The notes beneath the pieces are model-generated. The model saw nothing but the letters and a program-made list of their open reading frames with translations. It did no database searches and was not told the DNA's origin. A stretch of DNA of 64,000 bases from Rubripirellula sp. (GTDB taxonomy: Bacteria; Planctomycetota; Planctomycetia; Pirellulales; Pirellulaceae), in the NCBI GenBank assembly GCA_965216875.1, contig OZ244207.1, positions 32,001 to 96,000 on the forward strand, in the 5' to 3' direction. A program made the translations under genes and the position numbers. Shown one piece after another: positions 3,726 to 17,522 of this stretch (the stretch's first letter is position 1; each line of letters starts with the position of its first letter).

Positions 3726-5051
3726 CTATTGGGAGATTGATTCTGTCGGGCCTTCGACGACGTTCGCTTTGGTGCCTTCGCCATTTTCGGACGCTTGGTG
3801 AAACCGCCATTGTTTCCCAACGATCAAACGGGCGCCGCGCCGAAAGGTGAGATACGACCATGCCCAACTGAGGACGACCAGCAAGCGTCGACGAAATCCG
3901 GTCAAGTAGTAGATGTGGATGACGAGCCATGCGATCCATGCGCCGAAACCTCCAAGTCGAAATCTGCCGACTTCGGTGATCGCGCGACTGCGACCGATCG
4001 TTGCCATCTGCCCTTTGTCTTTGTATTGAAACTCTTGGCGTTGGCTTCCATCAAGTTCACGCAAAATGTTCTTGGCGAGGAAGCGACCTTGTTGCATGGC
4101 GACCGGGGCAAGGCCGGGCAGAGGCGAGCCGCTGTGATCAACATGCGCTTGGTCACCGGCGACAAAGACATTGGGATGCCCTTTAACGCTCAGGTCAGCC
4201 TCCACCACGACACGCCCGGTGCGATCGACTTCCAAATTCAACTTGGATCCGAGGCTTGATGCTTGAACGCCGGCGGCCCAAAGCACGGTTCCCGCGCTGA
4301 TGCGTTCTTCACTCACTTCGACCCCACTTTCGTCCACTTGATTGACAAGGCTCGAAGTCCAGACTTGAACCCCCAAGCTCTCGAGGTCTCGGGTCGCGCG
4401 TTTGGACAATTTGGGCGAAAACATCGAAAGGATTCGTGGTCCGCCTTCGATCAAAATCACACGAGCAAGCGCAGGTTCGATGTTGCGAAAGTCGCGAGCA
4501 AGGGTGAACCGGCTCATTTCGCCGATCGCGCCCGCCAGTTCAACGCCAGTGGGGCCGCCCCCAACAACAACGAAGGTAAGCAAACGCCTTTGCTCGTCGG
4601 CGTTTGTCGAACGTTCCGCCTGTTCGAACGCGGTCAGCACACGGCGCCGAATCTCGGTTGCTTGCTCAACCGTTTTGAGTCCTGGCGCGAACCTTTCCCA
4701 ATGATCTTTGCCGAAGTAACTATGTTTGGCTCCACAGGCAAGGATCAAGTAATCGTAGGGCACATCACCGAAGTCGGCTTTCACTTTCTTGCCGTCAAAG
4801 TCGACCGATTTGACTTCGCCTTGCAAGACGTGCGCGTTCTTTTGCTTTGACAAAATGCTGCGTATGGGGGCAGCGATGTCAGCGGGGCTGAGTCCCGCCA
4901 TCGCAACTTGGTAGAGCAGCGGTTGGAAGAGATGGTGATTTCGGCGATCAATCAACGTGACGTGAACATGCTTTGCGCGACGAAACCCCTTCGCAGCATT
5001 GAGGCCGGCAAACCCGCCCCCAACGATGACCACGCGAGTGATGTTGTCCAT
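3726..5051 (-). CDS. ndh: Type II NADH dehydrogenase (NDH-2)
   Basis: VVIVGGGFAG FAD motif, HLFQPLLYQVA, VVVGGGPTGVE NADH motif, AGD, YKDKGQMATIG. Confidence 0.93.
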   Translation of the reverse strand: MDNITRVVIVGGGFAGLNAAKGFRRAKHVHVTLIDRRNHHLFQPLLYQVAMAGLSPADIAAPIRSILSKQKNAHVLQGEVKSVDFDGKKVKADFGDVPYDYLILACGAKHSYFGKDHWERFAPGLKTVEQATEIRRRVLTAFEQAERSTNADEQRRLLTFVVVGGGPTGVELAGAIGEMSRFTLARDFRNIEPALARVILIEGGPRILSMFSPKLSKRATRDLESLGVQVWTSSLVNQVDESGVEVSEERISAGTVLWAAGVQASSLGSKLNLEVDRTGRVVVEADLSVKGHPNVFVAGDQAHVDHSGSPLPGLAPVAMQQGRFLAKNILRELDGSQRQEFQYKDKGQMATIGRSRAITEVGRFRLGGFGAWIAWLVIHIYYLTGFRRRLLVVLSWAWSYLTFRRGARLIVGKQWRFHQASENGEGTKANVVEGPTESISQ

Positions 5052-5366: not shown

Positions 5367-8300
5367 TCACGCATCCGATTCGGCTTTTTCGGCCGTCAAC
5401 GGATCGGGTATTGACGATTTGCGAACTGAGTCACTGATGGTTGCGCGATTGAGCGATTCCACGAAAGAATTGATTCGATCCTTGAAACGCTGTGATCCCG
5501 CACAGTTGTAGGCTTCGAGTGGAGGTTTGTTGTCAAGCAGGCTATTGCTTTGCCGCAGAGTCGAGCAGATCCAACGTCTCAAGAGTCTCGCATGTCGATC
5601 GTACTGGCGGATTCGCGATCGCCACAGCCACCGAAATGCATCCTCGCCTTCACGCATTCCAAGTTGTACAAGTTCGTGGTATTTGACTTTGTGTGTTCGA
5701 TTGTCGGATTCGTCATGGTGCCAAAGGGGCGTCCAAAGCTCTTGATGCGAGTCGTTTTCGGTAGCAAGTTGGTTGGCGTCACGGACCGGCAATCCGATCC
5801 CGTATTGCAGACGCAAGATGTTTGCGCGTCGGCTGGTGAGCAAGTCGATGGCTCTCTCACCCATTTGGTACGAGCGACTGCCTCGGGCCGTCGCGAGAAA
5901 CCAGTCTCCGCGAACACTTCGCGAGCCTGGTAGTCGCGCGGGGATATAGATGTCGTTAACACGTCGCGGTTCTTGGGTCGTATGCGCAGCGGAATACCAA
6001 GTCCGGAAGGCAACAGGAATTCGGTTGCCCTCGTTTTGCGGCTTGGCGATGTTCTCGTCCGTCATCACTTCTGGCGGCAAGAGAGCAGCCATGATCAGAA
6101 GTGCCCTGTGCGCTTCTTCGTTGAAGCAAGTCAGGATTTCGGCCAGATTCCAAATGGAGTGTTCTTCTCGCGAGTGCGGAAACACATCGTCAATGGTGTG
6201 TCGATGTCCGGAGGGATGGGTGCCCATCTTGCCGTTTGACGAGTGCAGGTCCTTGTCGATTTCGGAAGCCCAGATTTCGAAGAAGAGGCAGCTGATCGTT
6301 TCTTGGATTTCGGGGGCGACAGCGAACGGAACGTAATGGTGTTGGTTGTTGGCAAGGCTGCGGTTACGAGCAAGAGCAATGTCGTTGCATTGTTCGGCCA
6401 ACTTGCGCCAATCGAGAACGTTGCCTCCCTTCATGGCGAGCCCGGGATCGGCGGTCGCCCCGGCATCTGTATCGAGTGTCGTGAACTGATCCCAGGTGTT
6501 GCGATGGTCGGATGAACCTTGCCACGCCGTACGGTTCACCATCAAGAATCCGAAGTCCCAAGCGTAGGGGACTTTCTGGACGTGAGGCTCGCGTTTGAGC
6601 AACTCAGGAAGGTCATAGCCAGTGGTGGAAAAGAAGTCAGACCGGCGAAGCGTTTTGGTCTGCAATGGTTCTTCGCTGCCCTCGAGGCTGGCGATGTTCG
6701 CAACGTGCATCGCTTCGGTGGGCTGGAACAGATGAAACGGGTCATCGGTGATGTAGTTGTAGACCTTGTCGACGACGAACGAGCCCGAGCTGTTGTCACG
6801 GCGGTAGCTCACCTCGGACGTTTCTGCGTCAAGGAACGCGTGTTGATCCTGCAGCTGCATTGAATGCGAACGAGACCAGAACTCGTCAACCTGCAGAACG
6901 AGAGTGTACGGGTACCTCGCAACTCCTTGTAGCTCGGTGAACTCGCGCAGCCGTTCGTAGTTCCCAGGGTCCTCGTCGCAGATGACACTCGGCGATTGCT
7001 CGCTGGCATTGGTCATCTTTTCAAATAGAAAGCGTATGTCTTCAATGTAGGTTTGCGCTGTCTGTGAACCTGCATAAAGGTGCACACGCAGTGGGACATA
7101 TCGCGGTGGGTCTTCGCCTTTCTCGAGCCCTTCGTAGAGTTCGAAGGCTCGCCCTACTGCCACCTTCCAGCTCTGGTTGTTTTTCAGGTGAGGCGGCCGC
7201 AGGAATTTGTCGCCGTTCGTCTGCGGGTTCTGAAACACCTTTAGCTCACGCGTGAAGCTACCCTGGCCAGAGTTTTGCTGAGGGGTGACGGTAATCGCAA
7301 CACGGCTTTCGCCAAAGTACGGCACACGCCAAGTGAACAACTGCATTGCAGTTAACTCGCGGAGCCGCCGAGTCGCTTTGAGCGCGAGCTGGGCAGTGAA
7401 CCCCCTCGCTTCGTTGCCAACGATAAGCGTGGCGATTCCCTCACGACGAAGAAAGAACATCAAGCAAGGAAGGAAAAGCGGGTCGCGCTCGACCAGTGGA
7501 TACATGTCACGAATCGCCGTCCAGTTGTCGATCACAAGTCGGACGCGCCAGCCAATCTTGCGCCGTTTTTCTTCATCTTGCCAAACGCTGCCGTCTTTAG
7601 GGTAGCCGTTCGCATCGAGCTCCAAGAGCAGAGTTGCTTGGGCTCGTTTGACGGCCTGTGAGATCACATGAAACAGACTTTCGCCCGTTTGGGTGTGGAC
7701 TTCCAGACGCCGGCAAAAGACGTGATGCCGATCCGTGATCTTTTCGCCGAGGTGACGTTCGAGTCGTTCGATCAGTCCAGCGCGTTCGAGAGTCTTGGTC
7801 GTAATCAAAATGGCAACGCAGGATTCATCGTCGTCACGCTTGCGTTTCGCTTGCGCGAGAAACGCTTTGCTCAACTTACTCTTGTAGGTTTGGTCTTCAC
7901 CAATCAATGCGACAGGGTCGGCTGTTGAGATTCCACGCGGATCGCCAATCAGTTCTATATTCCGATCGAAGTCTCGTGCTTCAAGAATTCCGTCGAGATT
8001 CTCGATTCCGAACGACGCCAGTGGCGGCGTGCTTGATTCAATCCGTTGCCCCTTCGCCTTCATGATTTGGCGATTGACAAGGTTAAGCGAATGAAGCACG
8101 TAGACGTAGGATTGGCTGACGTTGCGAGTTTCAGCGGGGATTCCCTTTTCTTCGAGTGCAAAGGGAGGCATGCCGTCGCGTTTTTGGACAGCGATGACGG
8201 GCGGGTCGTCGGCATTGAATGACTCTCCGGTCGTCGATCCTCGGCCGTCGCGGATGATCAACGCGTGAGGGCCCGGCACGTGTGCTTGGGCTCGCACCTT

Positions 8301-9224
8301 TTCGACCTGAACGAAACGCTGCAGGTAGCCATCTTCCGCTTTGGTTCCGAGGTGGATCACAGCGTCGGCAATGAATTCTTCGGGCGTCTTTGTCCCGTCA
8401 TTGTTCGCTTCGACAAGGAAGACCAAATGACATTTCCCTGCCGCTGTGCGAATTAACTGTGCGACGCGCGATCTCCGATCACGTCGCTGACCGAACGCAT
8501 CGATGTCGCCAACAAGGACTTCAAGTCCCTCGACCGCATCGACGATCATCAAGTGCTTTGGCTGGTGCGGCTCGGGCGGAGGTAGTGATCCGATCAGCCG
8601 GTTGATGTATCCCCAGTCGTCGCCAGTGGTGTGAGTGGCGAGGTCAATGAAATGAACGTGCCCTTCGTTGTCCTCCCAGATTCCATCGTCAAGCGGCAAG
8701 CGTTCACTGAGTTCGGTTTGTTCGACATCCTTCACATTGAACTGTTCGAGGACGTGGCTGATATCGTAGGGGTCGTCGATCCGACCTGGGCAGCAGTTGA
8801 GACCGAAGTTGCGCCAAGAGACGTCCGCACGTCCGAAGGTCAAATCCGTGGATGCATAAAGCACGAGTGGATCAAAGTCTTTTCGAGCGTCGCCGAGGAA
8901 CTCGTTGACGTCGGCGCGATAGCGCGCGGCCATGTGCATGGCGAGAATCGATTTGCCCACCCCGTCGATTCCGATCAAGCAGACCGAAACAGTATCCTGC
9001 TTGAGGGTCTTGCCCTTGACGAGCGAGTTGATTCCCACGCCTGGCTTGAGATTGCTGAGGATCTTTCCGTCACCGACATCGACGCGCGGGTGTCCCAGCA
9101 GAGTGTCGAGGCTTGGAATGCCGAATCGCAAAACGAGGCGGTCTTTTGCATCGGCCGCGTCTTCGGCGTCAGGAACATCAGGTGTGTCGGCCGCATCGTT
9201 GTTGTCGAGTTCTTCTTTTATCAC
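5367..9224 (-). CDS. KaiC-like double RecA-fold ATPase fused to a C-terminal solute-binding-protein-like domain
   Basis: Domain 1: FGIPSLDTLL, Walker A GIDGVGKS, Walker B MIVD, EEFIADAVIHL, RFVQVEKVR. Domain 2: FGIENLDGIL, GEDQTYKS, LVID. C-terminal: VDEFW, VPYAWDFGFLMVNR, GDWFLA, LLTS, GLPVR. Confidence 0.75.
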   Translation of the reverse strand: MIKEELDNNDAADTPDVPDAEDAADAKDRLVLRFGIPSLDTLLGHPRVDVGDGKILSNLKPGVGINSLVKGKTLKQDTVSVCLIGIDGVGKSILAMHMAARYRADVNEFLGDARKDFDPLVLYASTDLTFGRADVSWRNFGLNCCPGRIDDPYDISHVLEQFNVKDVEQTELSERLPLDDGIWEDNEGHVHFIDLATHTTGDDWGYINRLIGSLPPPEPHQPKHLMIVDAVEGLEVLVGDIDAFGQRRDRRSRVAQLIRTAAGKCHLVFLVEANNDGTKTPEEFIADAVIHLGTKAEDGYLQRFVQVEKVRAQAHVPGPHALIIRDGRGSTTGESFNADDPPVIAVQKRDGMPPFALEEKGIPAETRNVSQSYVYVLHSLNLVNRQIMKAKGQRIESSTPPLASFGIENLDGILEARDFDRNIELIGDPRGISTADPVALIGEDQTYKSKLSKAFLAQAKRKRDDDESCVAILITTKTLERAGLIERLERHLGEKITDRHHVFCRRLEVHTQTGESLFHVISQAVKRAQATLLLELDANGYPKDGSVWQDEEKRRKIGWRVRLVIDNWTAIRDMYPLVERDPLFLPCLMFFLRREGIATLIVGNEARGFTAQLALKATRRLRELTAMQLFTWRVPYFGESRVAITVTPQQNSGQGSFTRELKVFQNPQTNGDKFLRPPHLKNNQSWKVAVGRAFELYEGLEKGEDPPRYVPLRVHLYAGSQTAQTYIEDIRFLFEKMTNASEQSPSVICDEDPGNYERLREFTELQGVARYPYTLVLQVDEFWSRSHSMQLQDQHAFLDAETSEVSYRRDNSSGSFVVDKVYNYITDDPFHLFQPTEAMHVANIASLEGSEEPLQTKTLRRSDFFSTTGYDLPELLKREPHVQKVPYAWDFGFLMVNRTAWQGSSDHRNTWDQFTTLDTDAGATADPGLAMKGGNVLDWRKLAEQCNDIALARNRSLANNQHHYVPFAVAPEIQETISCLFFEIWASEIDKDLHSSNGKMGTHPSGHRHTIDDVFPHSREEHSIWNLAEILTCFNEEAHRALLIMAALLPPEVMTDENIAKPQNEGNRIPVAFRTWYSAAHTTQEPRRVNDIYIPARLPGSRSVRGDWFLATARGSRSYQMGERAIDLLTSRRANILRLQYGIGLPVRDANQLATENDSHQELWTPLWHHDESDNRTHKVKYHELVQLGMREGEDAFRWLWRSRIRQYDRHARLLRRWICSTLRQSNSLLDNKPPLEAYNCAGSQRFKDRINSFVESLNRATISDSVRKSSIPDPLTAEKAESDA

Positions 9225-9230
9225 GGTTGG

Positions 9231-10640
9231 CTACTCGCCCTGTAAATCGAGATTTCGTGCCACGGCGACCAGCCCCTCGTAGACCTCGTCTGGGACATCG
9301 GGGACGTCTGGACCTGACGGCTTGTTCTGCGCAAGGGCCTTGGCAAAGTACTGGCGTCCAAGGCAGTCGTGTAAGAAATTGACATGAGGTGTCAGAGAAC
9401 CAATTCCGGACGCGACTAACGCGTTTGTCGAGGCGGGCGTCCGCCGCCAGAGCGTCGGCACAACGGTGGTCCAGGTAGTGCCTTCGTGGGTGAATGCAAT
9501 CTGTTTCAAGTGGACCGCGGCGAGAATTCGCTTTCCAATCAGCCCGCGTTTTGACGAAGTTTCGACTGCTGTCGCCTCAAAAACCTTGGTGAAAACATCT
9601 TGTAGCGAACCGGCATGCAACGTTGTCACAACGAGGTGCCCCGTTCCTGCGAAGTCAATCAGTTCCTTGAGGTCTTGCTTCTTGCGGGTCTCGCCCACAA
9701 GCATGCAGGCTGGTGTCTGACGCAACGCGTCGACAAAGACATCGGCAAGGTCGTCGTAGTCTTTGTTGTTTCGGTCCCGTGCTGTGTAATCAATGATGTC
9801 GGATAGTTGCGGGACTCCATCCCGCGGTGGTTTTGCAAACCATGTTTCAACCGGGTCTTCACACGTCAGCAAATGGGGATTGCGCTCTTTGTGTTTTCGC
9901 AAAAAGCCGTAGGTCTTCTCATGCTCAAAGAGCATGTGGATCATGGCTCGAGTGATCAGGCTTTTGGCGCTCTTGGTTTGTCCCGCAATCAATATCGCGC
10001 CGTGGAGCGATTCCAAGGCTGGCTCGGGACGTTTCTTTTCTTGTCGCGGCTCATGAAGGAACACCTCGTTGAACAGCATTTCGGCAATTTGTGCAATGCT
10101 GCAAGTGTTCGGTGGATCAAAGTCCGTCTTTCCCTTGTAACCCGACGTTTTGACGAGCTTGTTGATCCGATCCTGCTTCGTTTCGATGACGGGGCTGGCT
10201 GTTTCGCCCTCGAGCCTGATGACCCATTTGGCAGTGCGGAGTTCGGCTAGGATTTCATCAGGTGTCTTGTCCTGGTTGGTTTCAAGATTGAGAAACGTTT
10301 CGAGTTGCTTTTTCGCAGTCTTGATGTCGCTACCGTCCGCTCGGACGGTCGTGCTCGTTAACGTTTCACGCTTTTTCTCCTCACCGCGCACGTTGCTGCA
10401 CATGCAGAGGAGGCATCGGCCCTTGAACTTCACTTCCGTGTCGTCTGGCAGTCTCGCAGTGAACTCATGATCTGCGCTAAGGGAATGTTCTAACGAAGCA
10501 TCGGTGTTAGAAAACTCCTTGGCGAGTCTATGAAGGCCGTTGTCCAAGTAGAACGTGAAGTCGCTATCCAATTGAATGTTCGACCACACCTTCGTTTCGT
10601 GGTTATAGTCAACTCGACCGTAAAGAGTAGGGACAACCAA
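9231..10640 (-). CDS. PilT/VirB11 (T2SS/T4P) family ATPase-like protein with degenerate Walker A
   Basis: GAILIAGQTKSAKS, Asp box TCEDPVE, ALRQTPACMLVGETR, His box GTGHLVVTTLH; start codon uncertain (TTG). Confidence 0.8.
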   Translation of the reverse strand: MVVPTLYGRVDYNHETKVWSNIQLDSDFTFYLDNGLHRLAKEFSNTDASLEHSLSADHEFTARLPDDTEVKFKGRCLLCMCSNVRGEEKKRETLTSTTVRADGSDIKTAKKQLETFLNLETNQDKTPDEILAELRTAKWVIRLEGETASPVIETKQDRINKLVKTSGYKGKTDFDPPNTCSIAQIAEMLFNEVFLHEPRQEKKRPEPALESLHGAILIAGQTKSAKSLITRAMIHMLFEHEKTYGFLRKHKERNPHLLTCEDPVETWFAKPPRDGVPQLSDIIDYTARDRNNKDYDDLADVFVDALRQTPACMLVGETRKKQDLKELIDFAGTGHLVVTTLHAGSLQDVFTKVFEATAVETSSKRGLIGKRILAAVHLKQIAFTHEGTTWTTVVPTLWRRTPASTNALVASGIGSLTPHVNFLHDCLGRQYFAKALAQNKPSGPDVPDVPDEVYEGLVAVARNLDLQGE

Positions 10641-10822: not shown

Positions 10823-10918
10823 CGTAGGGTGTGTGCTTGCACGCACCGCCAAGAGACCAAGCACGGAGAGACCAAGCGGGAAGAGACAAGCTTGGTGCGC
10901 GCAAGCACACACCCTACG
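10823..10918. repeat. GTAG-type REP pair (family A)
   Basis: CGTAGGGTGTGTGCTTGCACGCACC ... GGTGCGCGCAAGCACACACCCTACG inverted pair; further copies at 36428-36829 and 51094. Confidence 0.85.
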
Positions 10919-10939: not shown

Positions 10940-13129
10940 CTAGTTTGTGGCGATCATGTCGAAGAGGTCGCTGGGGTTTGCCGCGCTGAGGATGCGGTCG
11001 CGCTGGGTTGGGTTTCCGATGAGTCGGGCGATGAAGGAGAGATGATCGAGATGCTCGTCGGCTTTGCCAATCGGGCTGAGAAGCATAAAGACGATCTCGA
11101 TCGGACGCCCTGTGAGTGGACAAATGACTTGGTTGTTCGGTCGCGCAACGACCACGCTGGTTTGCTCGACTTCGGATGTCCAAGCGTGTGGCAGCGCGAT
11201 GCCATTTCCCAAAAGACTTGTGTACTCTTCCTCGCGTTCCCACATGTTTGTCAGCAGTTTCTCTGCGTCGATTGCTGGGTTGCGTTTTTGTAGATGCTCT
11301 ACCATCTCACGGTACAGGTCCTTCAGTTCGCCACGATCGCTGAAGATCACATCCTCGCGATTGAGTGGCAAACGGAGGCGTTGTTGTCCGAGTTGCCAGT
11401 CGTACACCAACCACTCTTCGTCATCGGGCGATGCTTGTTCGGGGCTGCCCGCGATGACGGACTTGGCTCGCACCGTCATCATGATCTCTTCGGGCAGTGG
11501 TGGTGCGCCCGAGTCACTTGCCCGGTTATGAAGCGGGGCGGGGCCGCTGCCAGGTTCCATCCAACGATTCAGCGGTATCTCTTTCCAAACGCGTGTGCCA
11601 GCGAGAAGGTGTTGGTTGTCCGTCGTTTCATAACCCGACTTTTCCCAGCGTAGTATCTGTTTGCCCTCGAGCAACTCGGACCATCGGCTGCAGAGCATGC
11701 GGTTGAGGTCGGGATTGGGGGTGAGCGCGAGCAGGTTCCCGCACGCGAAAAGCGACGGGTGTTCTTCGGGCTTGAGCAACATCGCATCTTCGTTCAACGC
11801 GATCAGTCCCTCTTGTTGGGCGAGCCGGATTTCTCTGGCATTGGTGTCGATCAAGACAACGGAAACACCATGTTTGCGAAAGAATCTCGCGATCTGTCGG
11901 CCGAGGGCATGGCAACCGACAATCACCCAGCCATCGGGTACGGGGCGAAGCACGCCAAGGAAGTGCCCAACCGTCCCCGCCGTGAAGCCTTGAATGATCA
12001 CGGTGGCGGCGATCACCGAATAGGTAAACGCCTCAAGAAAAGGGGCCTCTTTGGAACCCGACTCGGTCATTGCCAAGGCAAACACGGAAGCCATGGATGC
12101 AGCCACAATGCCACGTGGCGCGATCCAACTGAGAAAGAGTTTCTCGTTCAGTTTCAGGTTGCTGCGGCGAGTCGACAAAAAGACATTCAGCGGTCGAATG
12201 ACAAACATCATGCCCAACACAACCGCGGGCAGTTGCCAACCGTAATCGAAAAAAGCAGAGAGTTTCAGATTGGCGGCCAACAAGACAAAGAGAAGTCCAA
12301 TCAAGAAGTCCTTCAGTTCCGCCTTGTAACTGACAATGTCCCTTTGCTGAGGCGTTTTGAGCAAGCCGAGAATCAGTCCTGCGACCGTAACGCTTAGCAA
12401 ACCGCTTTCGGAAATCATCAGGTCGGCGATCGCAAAGTTCAACATCGCCATCGCGAGCACGAAGATGTTGGTGTGCTCTTCGTCAATCCATCGGCGACGA
12501 AGAACAAAGTCGAGTGCATAGCCAAAGGCGACGCCAAGAACGCTGCCGATCGCGAAGCGGAGCAAAAAGTCCTGTAGCACTAACTGTTGCGATCCATCTG
12601 TGCTGACATAGTATTCAAAGCAAAGCAGCGCAATGAACACGCCGATCGGATCAATAAGCACTCCCTCCCAGTGCAAGATGGCCTGCAGTTTGGGCTGAGC
12701 CCGAATGCGATGTAAAAGGGGACCGATGACAGTCGGTCCCGTGACGATCACCAGACTTGCCGACATGAGGCAGAAGACCCAGTCGAAACCGAATGCAAGT
12801 TTAAGGAGCGCCGTGGTGCCCAGCCATGTGACCAGCACGCCAACGGACAGGATGCGAAGAATCTCGCTACTGACAGTCTTGTAGTCGCTAATGTCAAGCG
12901 TCAGCCCGCCTTCGAACAAAATGATCGCGACGGCAAGCGAGATGAGGATACCGAGTCCGTCACCAAGTGCACTCGGGTTCACAATGCCCAAGCATTCGGG
13001 GCCGGCAAGGACACCACCGATCAAGAGCAACGCGATCGCCGAGGTGCGAAGGTAATTGGCGATCGAAAAAAGGCACACGCCCAGGGCGGCAGCCACCGTA
13101 AAGGTTGTGAGCAGTTCGTGAGGATGCAT
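10940..13129 (-). CDS. NhaP/CPA1 cation:proton antiporter with TrkA-N (RCK) and PTS EIIA domains
   Basis: Many TM helices, LFEGGL, TGPTV, EGVLID, IAPRGIVAAS; IVGCHALG Rossmann motif; EREEEYTSLLGNGIALPH EIIA motif. Confidence 0.9.
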   Translation of the reverse strand: MHPHELLTTFTVAAALGVCLFSIANYLRTSAIALLLIGGVLAGPECLGIVNPSALGDGLGILISLAVAIILFEGGLTLDISDYKTVSSEILRILSVGVLVTWLGTTALLKLAFGFDWVFCLMSASLVIVTGPTVIGPLLHRIRAQPKLQAILHWEGVLIDPIGVFIALLCFEYYVSTDGSQQLVLQDFLLRFAIGSVLGVAFGYALDFVLRRRWIDEEHTNIFVLAMAMLNFAIADLMISESGLLSVTVAGLILGLLKTPQQRDIVSYKAELKDFLIGLLFVLLAANLKLSAFFDYGWQLPAVVLGMMFVIRPLNVFLSTRRSNLKLNEKLFLSWIAPRGIVAASMASVFALAMTESGSKEAPFLEAFTYSVIAATVIIQGFTAGTVGHFLGVLRPVPDGWVIVGCHALGRQIARFFRKHGVSVVLIDTNAREIRLAQQEGLIALNEDAMLLKPEEHPSLFACGNLLALTPNPDLNRMLCSRWSELLEGKQILRWEKSGYETTDNQHLLAGTRVWKEIPLNRWMEPGSGPAPLHNRASDSGAPPLPEEIMMTVRAKSVIAGSPEQASPDDEEWLVYDWQLGQQRLRLPLNREDVIFSDRGELKDLYREMVEHLQKRNPAIDAEKLLTNMWEREEEYTSLLGNGIALPHAWTSEVEQTSVVVARPNNQVICPLTGRPIEIVFMLLSPIGKADEHLDHLSFIARLIGNPTQRDRILSAANPSDLFDMIATN

Positions 13130-16328: not shown

Positions 16329-17441
16329 CTAGGAGAACATTTCTTCGATCTGTTCGATGTAGTCGAGCGCTTCTTCCGGCTGCACGACGTCTGCTCCCGG
16401 AACACGACCGTCGCGATCGCATTGCCCAAGTGCCAGCAGGTCCTCGTACCAAGGATGGGACGCCAGCTTTCGCTTACGCCGTGCGCCGATGGTGTGATCG
16501 ACGATCTTGTGAACTTCCATGTGGTGCGCGATCAACCAGCCGGTGCGGTCGGTAATGAACCCGTCGAGTGCTTCGAGACCTGCAAGCACATGGTCGTCGG
16601 GATCGATCGCCTTGCCGACATCGTGCAGCAGTGCTGCAAGCAAGAACTCTTCGTCGTACGGCGCCTCTTGTTGAGCGAGCGAATAGACCTGCATTGAATG
16701 AAACAGGGCGTCGCCTTCAGGGTGGTAACGCGGATTCTGCTGGACGTTTTCGAGCGGAGTCAGTAGCGACAAGAAGACGGCAAACCGATCAGGGCAGCTG
16801 TCCATTTCGGCTAATGACTTCGCCTGTTGGGCTGCATCGACGTCGTGTTCGAGTGCGATCAGTTTTTCGAGTTGTGAAAGACTCGCTCGTTCAATCGCTT
16901 TTCCTGTGATGGAACTTCGAAACCGAAATCCCAACAGCGAAGGATGGTAGACCGTCAATTCAACCGGGTATTCGTCGGCGACGTGAATATGCGTGAAGAC
17001 TCGCTGCTCGCCATCCTTCTGGATCCGCTTTCGCTCGAGCTCGTAGCTGGCACCCCAATCATCCAGTTCAAGCGTGATCGCGTGAGGGTTGGCGGCGAAG
17101 ACATGGATGTCGATGTCCGATCCTTCGCGAATCGAACCGGTCAAGACGCTGCCAATGATCCGCGGATGGAAAGGAGCCAAGCGAGTCAGCCACCACTTGG
17201 CCCGCAAACGCATTTTGTATAGCCGTTCATCGCGTCCCTCGGCCCCTTCGTGCAGCCGAGCGAGCAGTTGGACCTGCTCGCGTATTTCCGCATTGGTTGG
17301 CAAGTCGGCAGGTTTCACCCAGCCTTTGGTGATCCGTCGCGAAGCCTTTTGCTTTGCATGGTAGTACTCCGTTACTTCACGCGAGTACATCAGACGCGCC
17401 GCTTCCCAAGCGATTTGGCGACGCAATTTCGAAGAAGTCAT
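16329..17441 (-). CDS. Nucleotidyltransferase (pol-beta superfamily) fused to HD domain
   Basis: GSVLTG...SDIDIH NTase motif; YHPEGDALFHS and ALLHDVGK HD motif; start taken at MTSSKLRR. Confidence 0.85.
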   Translation of the reverse strand: MTSSKLRRQIAWEAARLMYSREVTEYYHAKQKASRRITKGWVKPADLPTNAEIREQVQLLARLHEGAEGRDERLYKMRLRAKWWLTRLAPFHPRIIGSVLTGSIREGSDIDIHVFAANPHAITLELDDWGASYELERKRIQKDGEQRVFTHIHVADEYPVELTVYHPSLLGFRFRSSITGKAIERASLSQLEKLIALEHDVDAAQQAKSLAEMDSCPDRFAVFLSLLTPLENVQQNPRYHPEGDALFHSMQVYSLAQQEAPYDEEFLLAALLHDVGKAIDPDDHVLAGLEALDGFITDRTGWLIAHHMEVHKIVDHTIGARRKRKLASHPWYEDLLALGQCDRDGRVPGADVVQPEEALDYIEQIEEMFS

Positions 17442-17522
17442 CGGCGGGGTTCGGAGACCGCGAACCCGAAACACGAGTGCATAGACAGAATCGTAAGCGT
17501 CATCGTTGCCTGAGCAGGCACT

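Follow-up and report, generated by a model that had tools for sequence, protein, structure and literature searches.

A strictly linked bacterial gene pair encoding a divergent PilT/VirB11-family ATPase and a KaiC-like tandem with a solute-binding fold

Gene organization and pairing

The stretch of DNA analysed here (the window; 64,000 nucleotides of contig OZ244207.1 from Rubripirellula sp.) carries two adjacent genes that form the module under study, both on the minus strand, to which all coordinates of their parts also refer. Gene 1 (9231..10640) encodes a divergent PilT/VirB11-family ATPase of 469 residues with a TTG start, two codons ahead of the start found in a near-identical allele, and gene 2 (5367..9224) encodes a protein of 1285 residues composed of a KaiC CI domain, a KaiC CII domain and a solute-binding fold. 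Open reading frames (ORFs) and Pfam confirmed what an earlier note, made by a model from the letters of the sequence, had described: two co-oriented genes spaced by 6 nt, flanked by an NDH-2 gene, ndh (3726-5051), and an NhaP/TrkA_N/PTS-EIIA gene (10940-13129). The module is real, conserved and undescribed in the libraries and literature searched.

The pairing of the two genes was assessed in 58 genome loci, of which 48 were evaluable, having the start of gene 2 and at least 1 kb of upstream sequence; the ten set aside comprised three at contig ends and seven without a scored N-terminus (among these, L037 has gene 1 and L042 is a fragment without it). Gene 1 lies directly upstream of gene 2 in 46 of the 48. 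The reverse test was performed on the best 80 of at least 557 metagenome loci, 28 of which hold members of the gene 1 family; reading the rows by hand, gene 2 comes next after gene 1 in 27 of these 28 (24 by a stricter script tally), and at metagenome locus L067 the sequence ends 82 bp past gene 1. None of 54 control loci has gene 2 beside another PilT-family gene, and the two genes are linked in all five carriers from the family of the host. Homologues of the two genes are thus linked across taxa, a point that the earlier note had proposed to check, and both the architecture and the strict pairing of the module are solid. With crude gene calls, no recurring third gene was found beside the pair in the 58 loci, nor a conserved permease, target, kinase or transcription factor.

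Trees built from 42 gene pairs correlate with r = 0.84 (the best of 2000 permutations reached 0.31) and have 17 of 20 supported splits in common, an agreement to which shared host ancestry contributes. Carriers belong to Planctomycetota, Acidobacteriota, Armatimonadota, Betaproteobacteria and other groups, the closest named homologues of gene 2 being from planctomycetes. Among close relatives the distribution is patchy, as the earlier note had suggested examining: the module is absent from 60 of 60 relatives, both same-genus genomes included, and strong matches were obtained in 5 of 300 genomes of the same family and in 2 of 121 of another family (its centre counted), with few candidates scored per genome. 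A comparison with the same-genus genome G001, meant to locate the empty site, found ndh in different surroundings there and did not turn up a close orthologue of NhaP.

Gene 1 encodes a divergent PilT/VirB11-family ATPase

Judging by Pfam (T2SSE, over the cutoff, E = 1e-15), motifs and profile alignment, the gene 1 product is an ATPase of the PilT/VirB11 (T2SSE) superfamily. The Asp box (EDPVE), Walker B (LVGE) and His box (GHLVVTTLH) reported in the earlier note are borne out both in the sequence and in the alignment of homologues, and the Walker A motif is atypical (GQTKSAKS). The AlphaFold model of the protein is confident (predicted local distance difference test, pLDDT, 90; predicted template modelling score 0.91). 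Its closest folds are DotB (Z 18.8, root-mean-square deviation, rmsd, 3.6, 238 aligned residues) and PilT (Z 18.1, rmsd 3.9, 237 aligned), which are tied, followed at a distance by FlaI (Z 12.8) and the archaeal Holliday-junction helicase 5f4h (Z 11.6), a member of the superfamily outside pili. Foldseek aligns the protein over its full length, at high rmsd.

The ATPase core and C-terminal helices (residues 213-469; 9234..10004) harbor the Walker A lysine K226, E261 and E265 of the Asp box, E317 of Walker B, and H335 and H342 of the His box. K226, E261, R288, R319 and H342 are present in 138 of 138 homologues, and E265, E317 and H335 in 137; because these residues are invariant or nearly so, the protein is most likely a catalytically active ATPase. 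The N-terminal half (residues 1-212; 10005..10640), which is hypervariable between strains, consists of a strand-rich N-domain, a helical insert and a linker. ATPases of this superfamily have a PAS-like N-domain with two conserved arginines. The profile alignment with PilT has a probability of 100, yet it misplaces the N-domain. R75 and R100, both invariant and located on predicted strands of this domain, are presumably the counterparts of R104 and R123 of DotB, with the N-domain left unplaced by the PilT profile alignment; according to the relevant part of PMC6153414, the DotB residues are required for the hexamer.

Several features set the gene 1 family apart. In 71 of 138 members the Walker A glycine before the lysine is replaced by alanine, the helix equivalent to AIRNLIRE reads TPxGxxAL, so that the PilT motif is absent, and the proteins end in a DLxG of their own. 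The best NCBIfam match, to pilT_fam (TIGR01420), scores 53.5 bits where 319 are required, and all NCBIfam subfamilies fall far under their cutoffs. A quick tree places the family as one clade outside PilT and GspE (Shimodaira-Hasegawa-like approximate likelihood ratio test 99), with a long-branch warning; its 52 rows comprise 20 of the 138 family members, 20 of 60 control ORFs and 12 host paralogues, with no DotB row. By these sequence comparisons gene 1 represents a clade of its own and not PilT or PilU proper. A profile search gave 585 clusters at 50% identity with E up to 1e-30, which hold candidate members. The stand-alone PilT-like ATPase of the earlier note thus holds as regards the superfamily and the lack of surrounding pilus genes, and requires correction as regards PilT itself, given the separate clade, the low pilT_fam score and the missing AIRNLIRE motif.

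Gene 2 combines a KaiC tandem with a solute-binding fold

The N-terminal part of gene 2 matches KaiC in Pfam (PF06745, E = 2e-9), and its profile aligns colinearly with an authentic KaiC over 368 columns between the ends of CI and CII (probability 97.7). The CI domain (residues about 30-395; 8040..9137) shows the Walker A motif GxxGxGKS, D229 and the finger residues K309 and R311, conserved in 115, 119, 119 and 118 of 120 homologues, respectively. After its P-loop, YxSTDL takes the place of the glutamate pair of KaiC, and for this reason the rate of hydrolysis by CI is uncertain. The CII domain (residues about 400-705; 7110..8027) keeps the P-loop GxxxTxK in 118 of 120 homologues and has lost the catalytic glutamate pair, the K/R finger and the S431/T432 phosphosites, the position of S431 being Arg in 58 of 70 homologues and that of T432 variable. 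The alignments therefore describe a KaiC-like CI-CII tandem with an intact CI and a degenerate CII.

The C-terminal 557 residues (709-1265; 5430..7100) have a confident predicted fold (pLDDT 91), identified by structure comparison as that of the maltose/trehalose-binding proteins: MalE3 is matched with Z 22.5, rmsd 3.4 and 366 aligned residues, followed by other sugar binders, UgpB (Z 20.8) and the dinucleotide binder 7c0f (Z 20.1). Foldseek retrieved solute-binding proteins at E = 6e-12, and an Atlas search was consistent with the fold. This kinship was undetected by sequence in Pfam or in the PDB, the latter searched by sequence and by profile; weak PDB profile matches to calexcitin were taken as chance. 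The near-invariant residues D780, W783, W889, D890, W1076, R1105-W1108 and R1202 include Trp, Asp and Arg residues that probably line the cleft, by analogy with motifs of binding proteins. The maximum 19-residue hydropathy of the protein is 1.53, exceeding 1.9 in 1 of 120 homologues; since no hydrophobic membrane segment is evident, the solute-binding domain would be cytoplasmic. The tandem and the additional domain proposed in the earlier note are hence supported, the fold of the latter by structure, with the amendment that CII is degenerate.

As side observations, the homologues of L021, L024 and L059 are 1865-1913 residues long, with some 600 residues extra, and at L041 (9995-15370) about 1.3 kb carrying an opposite-strand ORF of 389 residues, possibly an insertion sequence, interrupts gene 2.

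A KaiC-type timer or clock might be expected from the colinearity of gene 2 with authentic KaiC, and the earlier note had named timing among the possible roles. KaiB was absent from the host genome (G000) and from the carrier G068, and was found in three of five carriers searched, away from the pair; the earlier note's absence of kaiA and kaiB nearby thus extends for KaiB to the whole host genome, KaiA not having been searched for. Because the phosphosite motif, the CII catalytic pair and the CII finger are lost and two of the five carriers have no KaiB, timing is unlikely, and we give a clock very little credence, even with the predicted position of its partner described below.

A predicted complex of the two proteins

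The ATPases of the PilT/VirB11 type and KaiC both belong to families that form hexamers. A direct contact between the two products was explored by modelling the cognate pair of locus L011, with one chain of each protein (606 residues of CI-CII and 393 of gene 1, the solute-binding domain excluded). The model scored 0.72, and the best of three controls 0.00; of the solved complexes, 116 of 157 reach the mark applied, compared with 2 of 215 mismatched pairs, figures that are approximate with the alignments used. The runs have at least 91% of contacts in common, with a partner pLDDT of at least 80.

In the modelled interface a helix of CI that follows the GDDW motif (residues 205-216 of the window's protein, including R209; 8577..8612) packs against the gene 1 helix equivalent to AIRNLIRE and its terminal DLxG. 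Mapped from the L011 model, the predicted docking surface of gene 1 covers residues about 407-420, 428-430 and 455-468 (9237..9422), and takes in both this helix and the family-specific C-terminus. Residues at the interface are conserved: P418 and D465 of gene 1 are each found in 120 of 122 homologues, and R209 and R259 of gene 2 in 60 and 68 of 70, respectively. The GDDWG motif and the docking helix are degenerate in L023 and L046, both loci without gene 1. Altogether the model supports docking of the C-terminal face of gene 1 on the CI helix of gene 2.

The docking helix aligns with the helix preceding the Walker B of CI, and we take it to adjoin the B-loop of KaiC. KaiB and SasA bind KaiC at the CI B-loop, as stated in the part of PMC6378743 dealing with it, and this vicinity is a further point in favour of a clock, weighed against the losses in CII. 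In the ArlI-ArlH model, as presented in the pertinent part of PMC8978795, the regulator sits opposite the N-domain and the N-terminal face is left free for the membrane platform.

Relation to pili

That geometry, together with closest folds of DotB and PilT (Z 18.8 and 18.1) and the retention of all catalytic motifs, fits an accessory motor for type IV filaments encoded elsewhere (type IVa pili, type II secretion or tight adherence (Tad) systems), in which gene 2 would sense a cytoplasmic sugar and license gene 1 on a platform protein, in the manner of ArlH and ArlI. Canonical PilT occurs in 42 of 50 carrier genomes searched, and the host encodes 16 T2SSE-family ATPases. Against it, no pilin, platform or secretin gene was named among 114 nearest neighbours (of 133 called), and the nearest other T2SSE-family ATPase of the host lies about 480 kb from gene 1, in keeping with the earlier note's statement that no pilus or secretion genes are nearby. 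PilT is missing from 8 of the 50 genomes, and pilus control is not obligatory for this reason. Two PilT-less genomes examined further have weak partial PilM matches as their only ones, while one GspE/PilB and Tad ATPases are kept; in the single-contig genome G068, with 33 of 38 candidates scored, PilM is matched weakly and in part, and the ATPases are one GspE/PilB and three of Tad-like type. Moreover, hypervariability affects the very face that a conserved platform would contact, the helix corresponding to AIRNLIRE is altered and, in the model, hidden within the interface, and the module occurs in just 1-2% of family genomes. We consider this accessory role rather improbable. The module is not a standard pilus or archaellum locus, as no pilin, platform, secretin, ArlJ or archaellin genes were named among these neighbours or recur in the 58 loci.

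Strain variation and genomic context

Comparison with a near-identical strain revealed a marked difference between the module and its surroundings. In the flanking contigs 17 of 2413 and 23 of 3035 bases differ (<1%); in pieces of the cassette the differences amount to 49 of 2446, 30 of 675 and 98 of 1974 bases, and a large part of 10077-10533 gives no alignment. At the protein level, gene 1 and its allele P0002 are identical at 136 of 212 positions (64%) in residues 1-212 and at 166 of 169 (98%) in residues 301-469. This divergence is read as allele exchange of the free N-terminal face.

Two loci have neighbours typical of mobile or defence regions: L145 adjoins TrwC relaxase, RepA and ParA genes, and L146 adjoins transposase, DrmE_C and NERD genes, observations made with no background control. 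A distant sister of the gene 2 protein follows an HD-CE gene at L046 (E = 4e-12) and at L152 (E = 5e-4, below the cutoff and partial). In two Myxococcales (L046:5824-15196 and L023:1089-7506), gene 2 occurs without gene 1, tail to tail with the HD-CE-following sister; this sister was found in 0 of 300 genomes of a survey in which two candidates were scored per genome and weak matches may escape. HD-CE conflict systems were reportedly described by Burroughs and Aravind in 2020.

Other occurrences were noted in passing. The host has a distant KaiC-KaiC-pocket paralogue of 1374 residues with an N-terminal extension of about 320 (L061:9373-15877; G000:C1 about 1.4754-1.4819 Mb), which sits behind genes for a 249-residue orphan and a 537-residue 2-hydroxyacid-dehydrogenase-like protein and was found in 0 of 350 genomes of the phylum, again with two candidates scored per genome and weak matches liable to escape. 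L151 (718-14000) holds a 763-residue KaiC-like double ATPase, in which no pocket domain is evident, and two orphan genes on an element with RepA, ParA, TrwC and coupling-protein genes.

Upstream of the module, and outside it, lies an inverted repeat resembling repetitive extragenic palindromic (REP) elements (10823..10918, no strand assigned; arms 10823-10847 and 10894-10918). The REP pair seen by the earlier note is therefore present; as part of the module it was rejected, given that the 18-nt core of its arm has 182 genome matches with up to two mismatches and is an ordinary genome-wide repeat. The adjacent NhaP-type antiporter (10940-13129, minus strand) is a fusion that also comprises TrkA_N and, at the C-terminus, PTS EIIA, and the relatives searched match its first 486 residues only. 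Further along, an ORF of 381 residues (16329-17474, minus strand) appears by eye to combine a nucleotidyltransferase-like motif with an HD motif behind it.

Functional interpretation

The linkage of the two genes and the modelled docking argue for a physical, pilus-independent complex of their products, which we regard as probable. The whole reading that we favour, held tentatively and with somewhat less than even confidence, is that of a self-contained, cytoplasmic, ligand-gated two-ATPase machine with a role in conflict with phages or mobile elements. Such a role is suggested by the rarity of the module, its hypervariability at the strain level, the splitting of gene 2, the mobile and defence neighbours at L145 and L146, and the HD-CE-associated sister. 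Both proteins would form stacked hexamers, like ArlI and ArlH. The solute-binding fold would close on a constant small cytoplasmic ligand, such as a sugar, a sugar phosphate or a short nucleotide; the catalytically dead CII would pass the signal to CI, and CI would hold or release the gene 1 protein. The free and fastest-changing N-terminal face of gene 1 could then meet a variable target, either an invader protein or a remodelled host target, with the gene 1 ATPase as the output of the machine. More speculatively, and with less confidence than the general reading, the pair may represent a new class of bacterial immunity. Here a transporter binding protein, domesticated in the cytoplasm, would let a KaiC-derived ring sense a sugar or short nucleotide linked to infection; the ring would in turn switch a pilus-type motor ATPase repurposed as an effector without a pilus, the same KaiC-KaiC-pocket hub having interchangeable partners (the ATPase here, an HD-CE hydrolase in the sister lineage).

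A number of observations weigh against this conflict role or temper its supports. Neither protein matches a PADLOC 2023 family at E up to 1, and neither contains a nuclease, NADase or pore domain. Viral contigs gave no gene 2 relative and two distant PilT-family matches only, plasmids gave no module match at 1e-20, the gene trees group largely by host lineage, and the GC content of the module, overall and at third codon positions (GC3), is host-like, with no sign of recent import in its composition. PADLOC returned 8 matches among the 114 neighbours. Most are of a generic kind, among them three ABC ATPases, a kinase and an ankyrin protein, and the matches also include one UzuA and one PNP-like protein; NCBIfam assigned mainly housekeeping names. 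A defence-island setting, which the earlier note had proposed to look for, was absent at most of the loci. The presence of PilT in 42 of the 50 carrier genomes likewise speaks for pili. In addition, gene 2 is split in two of the five family carriers, where assembly error is possible; the HD-CE linkage stems from one lineage, Myxococcales; the genomes of L023 and L046, with no match to the gene 1 clade, are fragmentary and represent one lineage; and the complex model, of single L011 chains lacking the solute-binding domain, may echo solved complexes.

Housekeeping neighbourhoods and host-like GC3 would suit a stand-alone stress or nutrient switch concerned with neither conflict nor pili, in which the ligand turns on gene 1 as a remodeller of proteins or nucleic acids, as in KaiC-like signalling hubs. 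The ligand fold is conserved, the superfamily includes a member outside pili (5f4h, Z 11.6), and the host paralogue of gene 2 stands behind a 2-hydroxyacid-dehydrogenase-like gene. Against it, a housekeeping regulator would not usually show such extreme patchiness, alleles that diverge in near-identical strains and splitting this frequent, and neither a target, a kinase nor a transcription factor is conserved nearby; we find this switch unlikely.

The earlier note's proposal of a soluble, ligand-gated two-ATPase switch is retained in that the pair is linked and soluble, has a ligand-type fold and docks in the model, the gating by ligand staying a proposal; of its suggested roles in distant pili, timing or defence, timing is unlikely, pili are not obligatory and defence is the one we tentatively prefer. 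Its remark that no bacterial system of this make-up is described agrees with our searches of libraries and literature, in which no description of the pair was found; Burroughs and Aravind (2020) and Makarova et al. (2017), which lay outside these searches, or their supplements could list the architecture.

If correct, the proposal would mean that a bacterial KaiC has been wired to a ligand pocket and a pilus-family motor without a pilus, and the two families would reach further than clocks, archaella and secretion. Knowing what binds the gene 2 pocket would bring a new cytoplasmic signal to light. Being soluble, the two proteins also offer a simple test bed for the control of a type IV pilus (T4P)-type ATPase by a KaiC-like ring, a question still open for ArlH-ArlI, where the mode of action of ArlH is largely unknown according to the part of PMC8978795 concerned, and the modelled interface points to specific residues.

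Comparison with known systems

With PilT/PilU and DotB, gene 1 shares the two-domain fold, Asp box, Walker B, His box and C-terminal helices (PMC6153414, in its pertinent part); it differs in its altered Walker A, the replaced AIRNLIRE, the extra C-terminal DLxG, its separate clade and the lack of adjacent pilus or secretion genes. Gene 2 resembles cyanobacterial KaiC in its colinear CI-CII and in the Walker A and K/R fingers of CI, and departs from it in the degenerate CII, lost phosphosites, large inserts and C-terminal solute-binding fold, and in a host without KaiB. The solute-binding proteins of maltose/trehalose-type ABC transporters (MalE3, UgpB, SmoF, 7c0f) share their fold with the gene 2 domain over 366 residues, whereas the latter is predicted to be cytoplasmic, follows two ATPase domains, is about 160 residues longer and has no ABC permease as a conserved neighbour. 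The HD-CE conflict systems are connected through two Myxococcales loci in which a distant sister of gene 2 comes after an HD-CE gene; the present module has no HD-CE and carries an ATPase in the partner slot.

The archaellum pair ArlH-ArlI (FlaH-FlaI) likewise joins a KaiC-like protein to a T4P-family ATPase, a pairing the earlier note had also pointed out, and gene 2 is modelled on the face of gene 1 opposite the N-domain, as the regulator is in the ArlI-ArlH model in the part of PMC8978795 that presents it. In contrast to the archaellum, the module described here is bacterial and comes without archaellin, ArlJ or stator genes, its KaiC-like component is a double KaiC with a ligand fold instead of a single domain, and the fold of gene 1 is nearer to DotB and PilT (Z 18-19) than to FlaI (Z 12.8).

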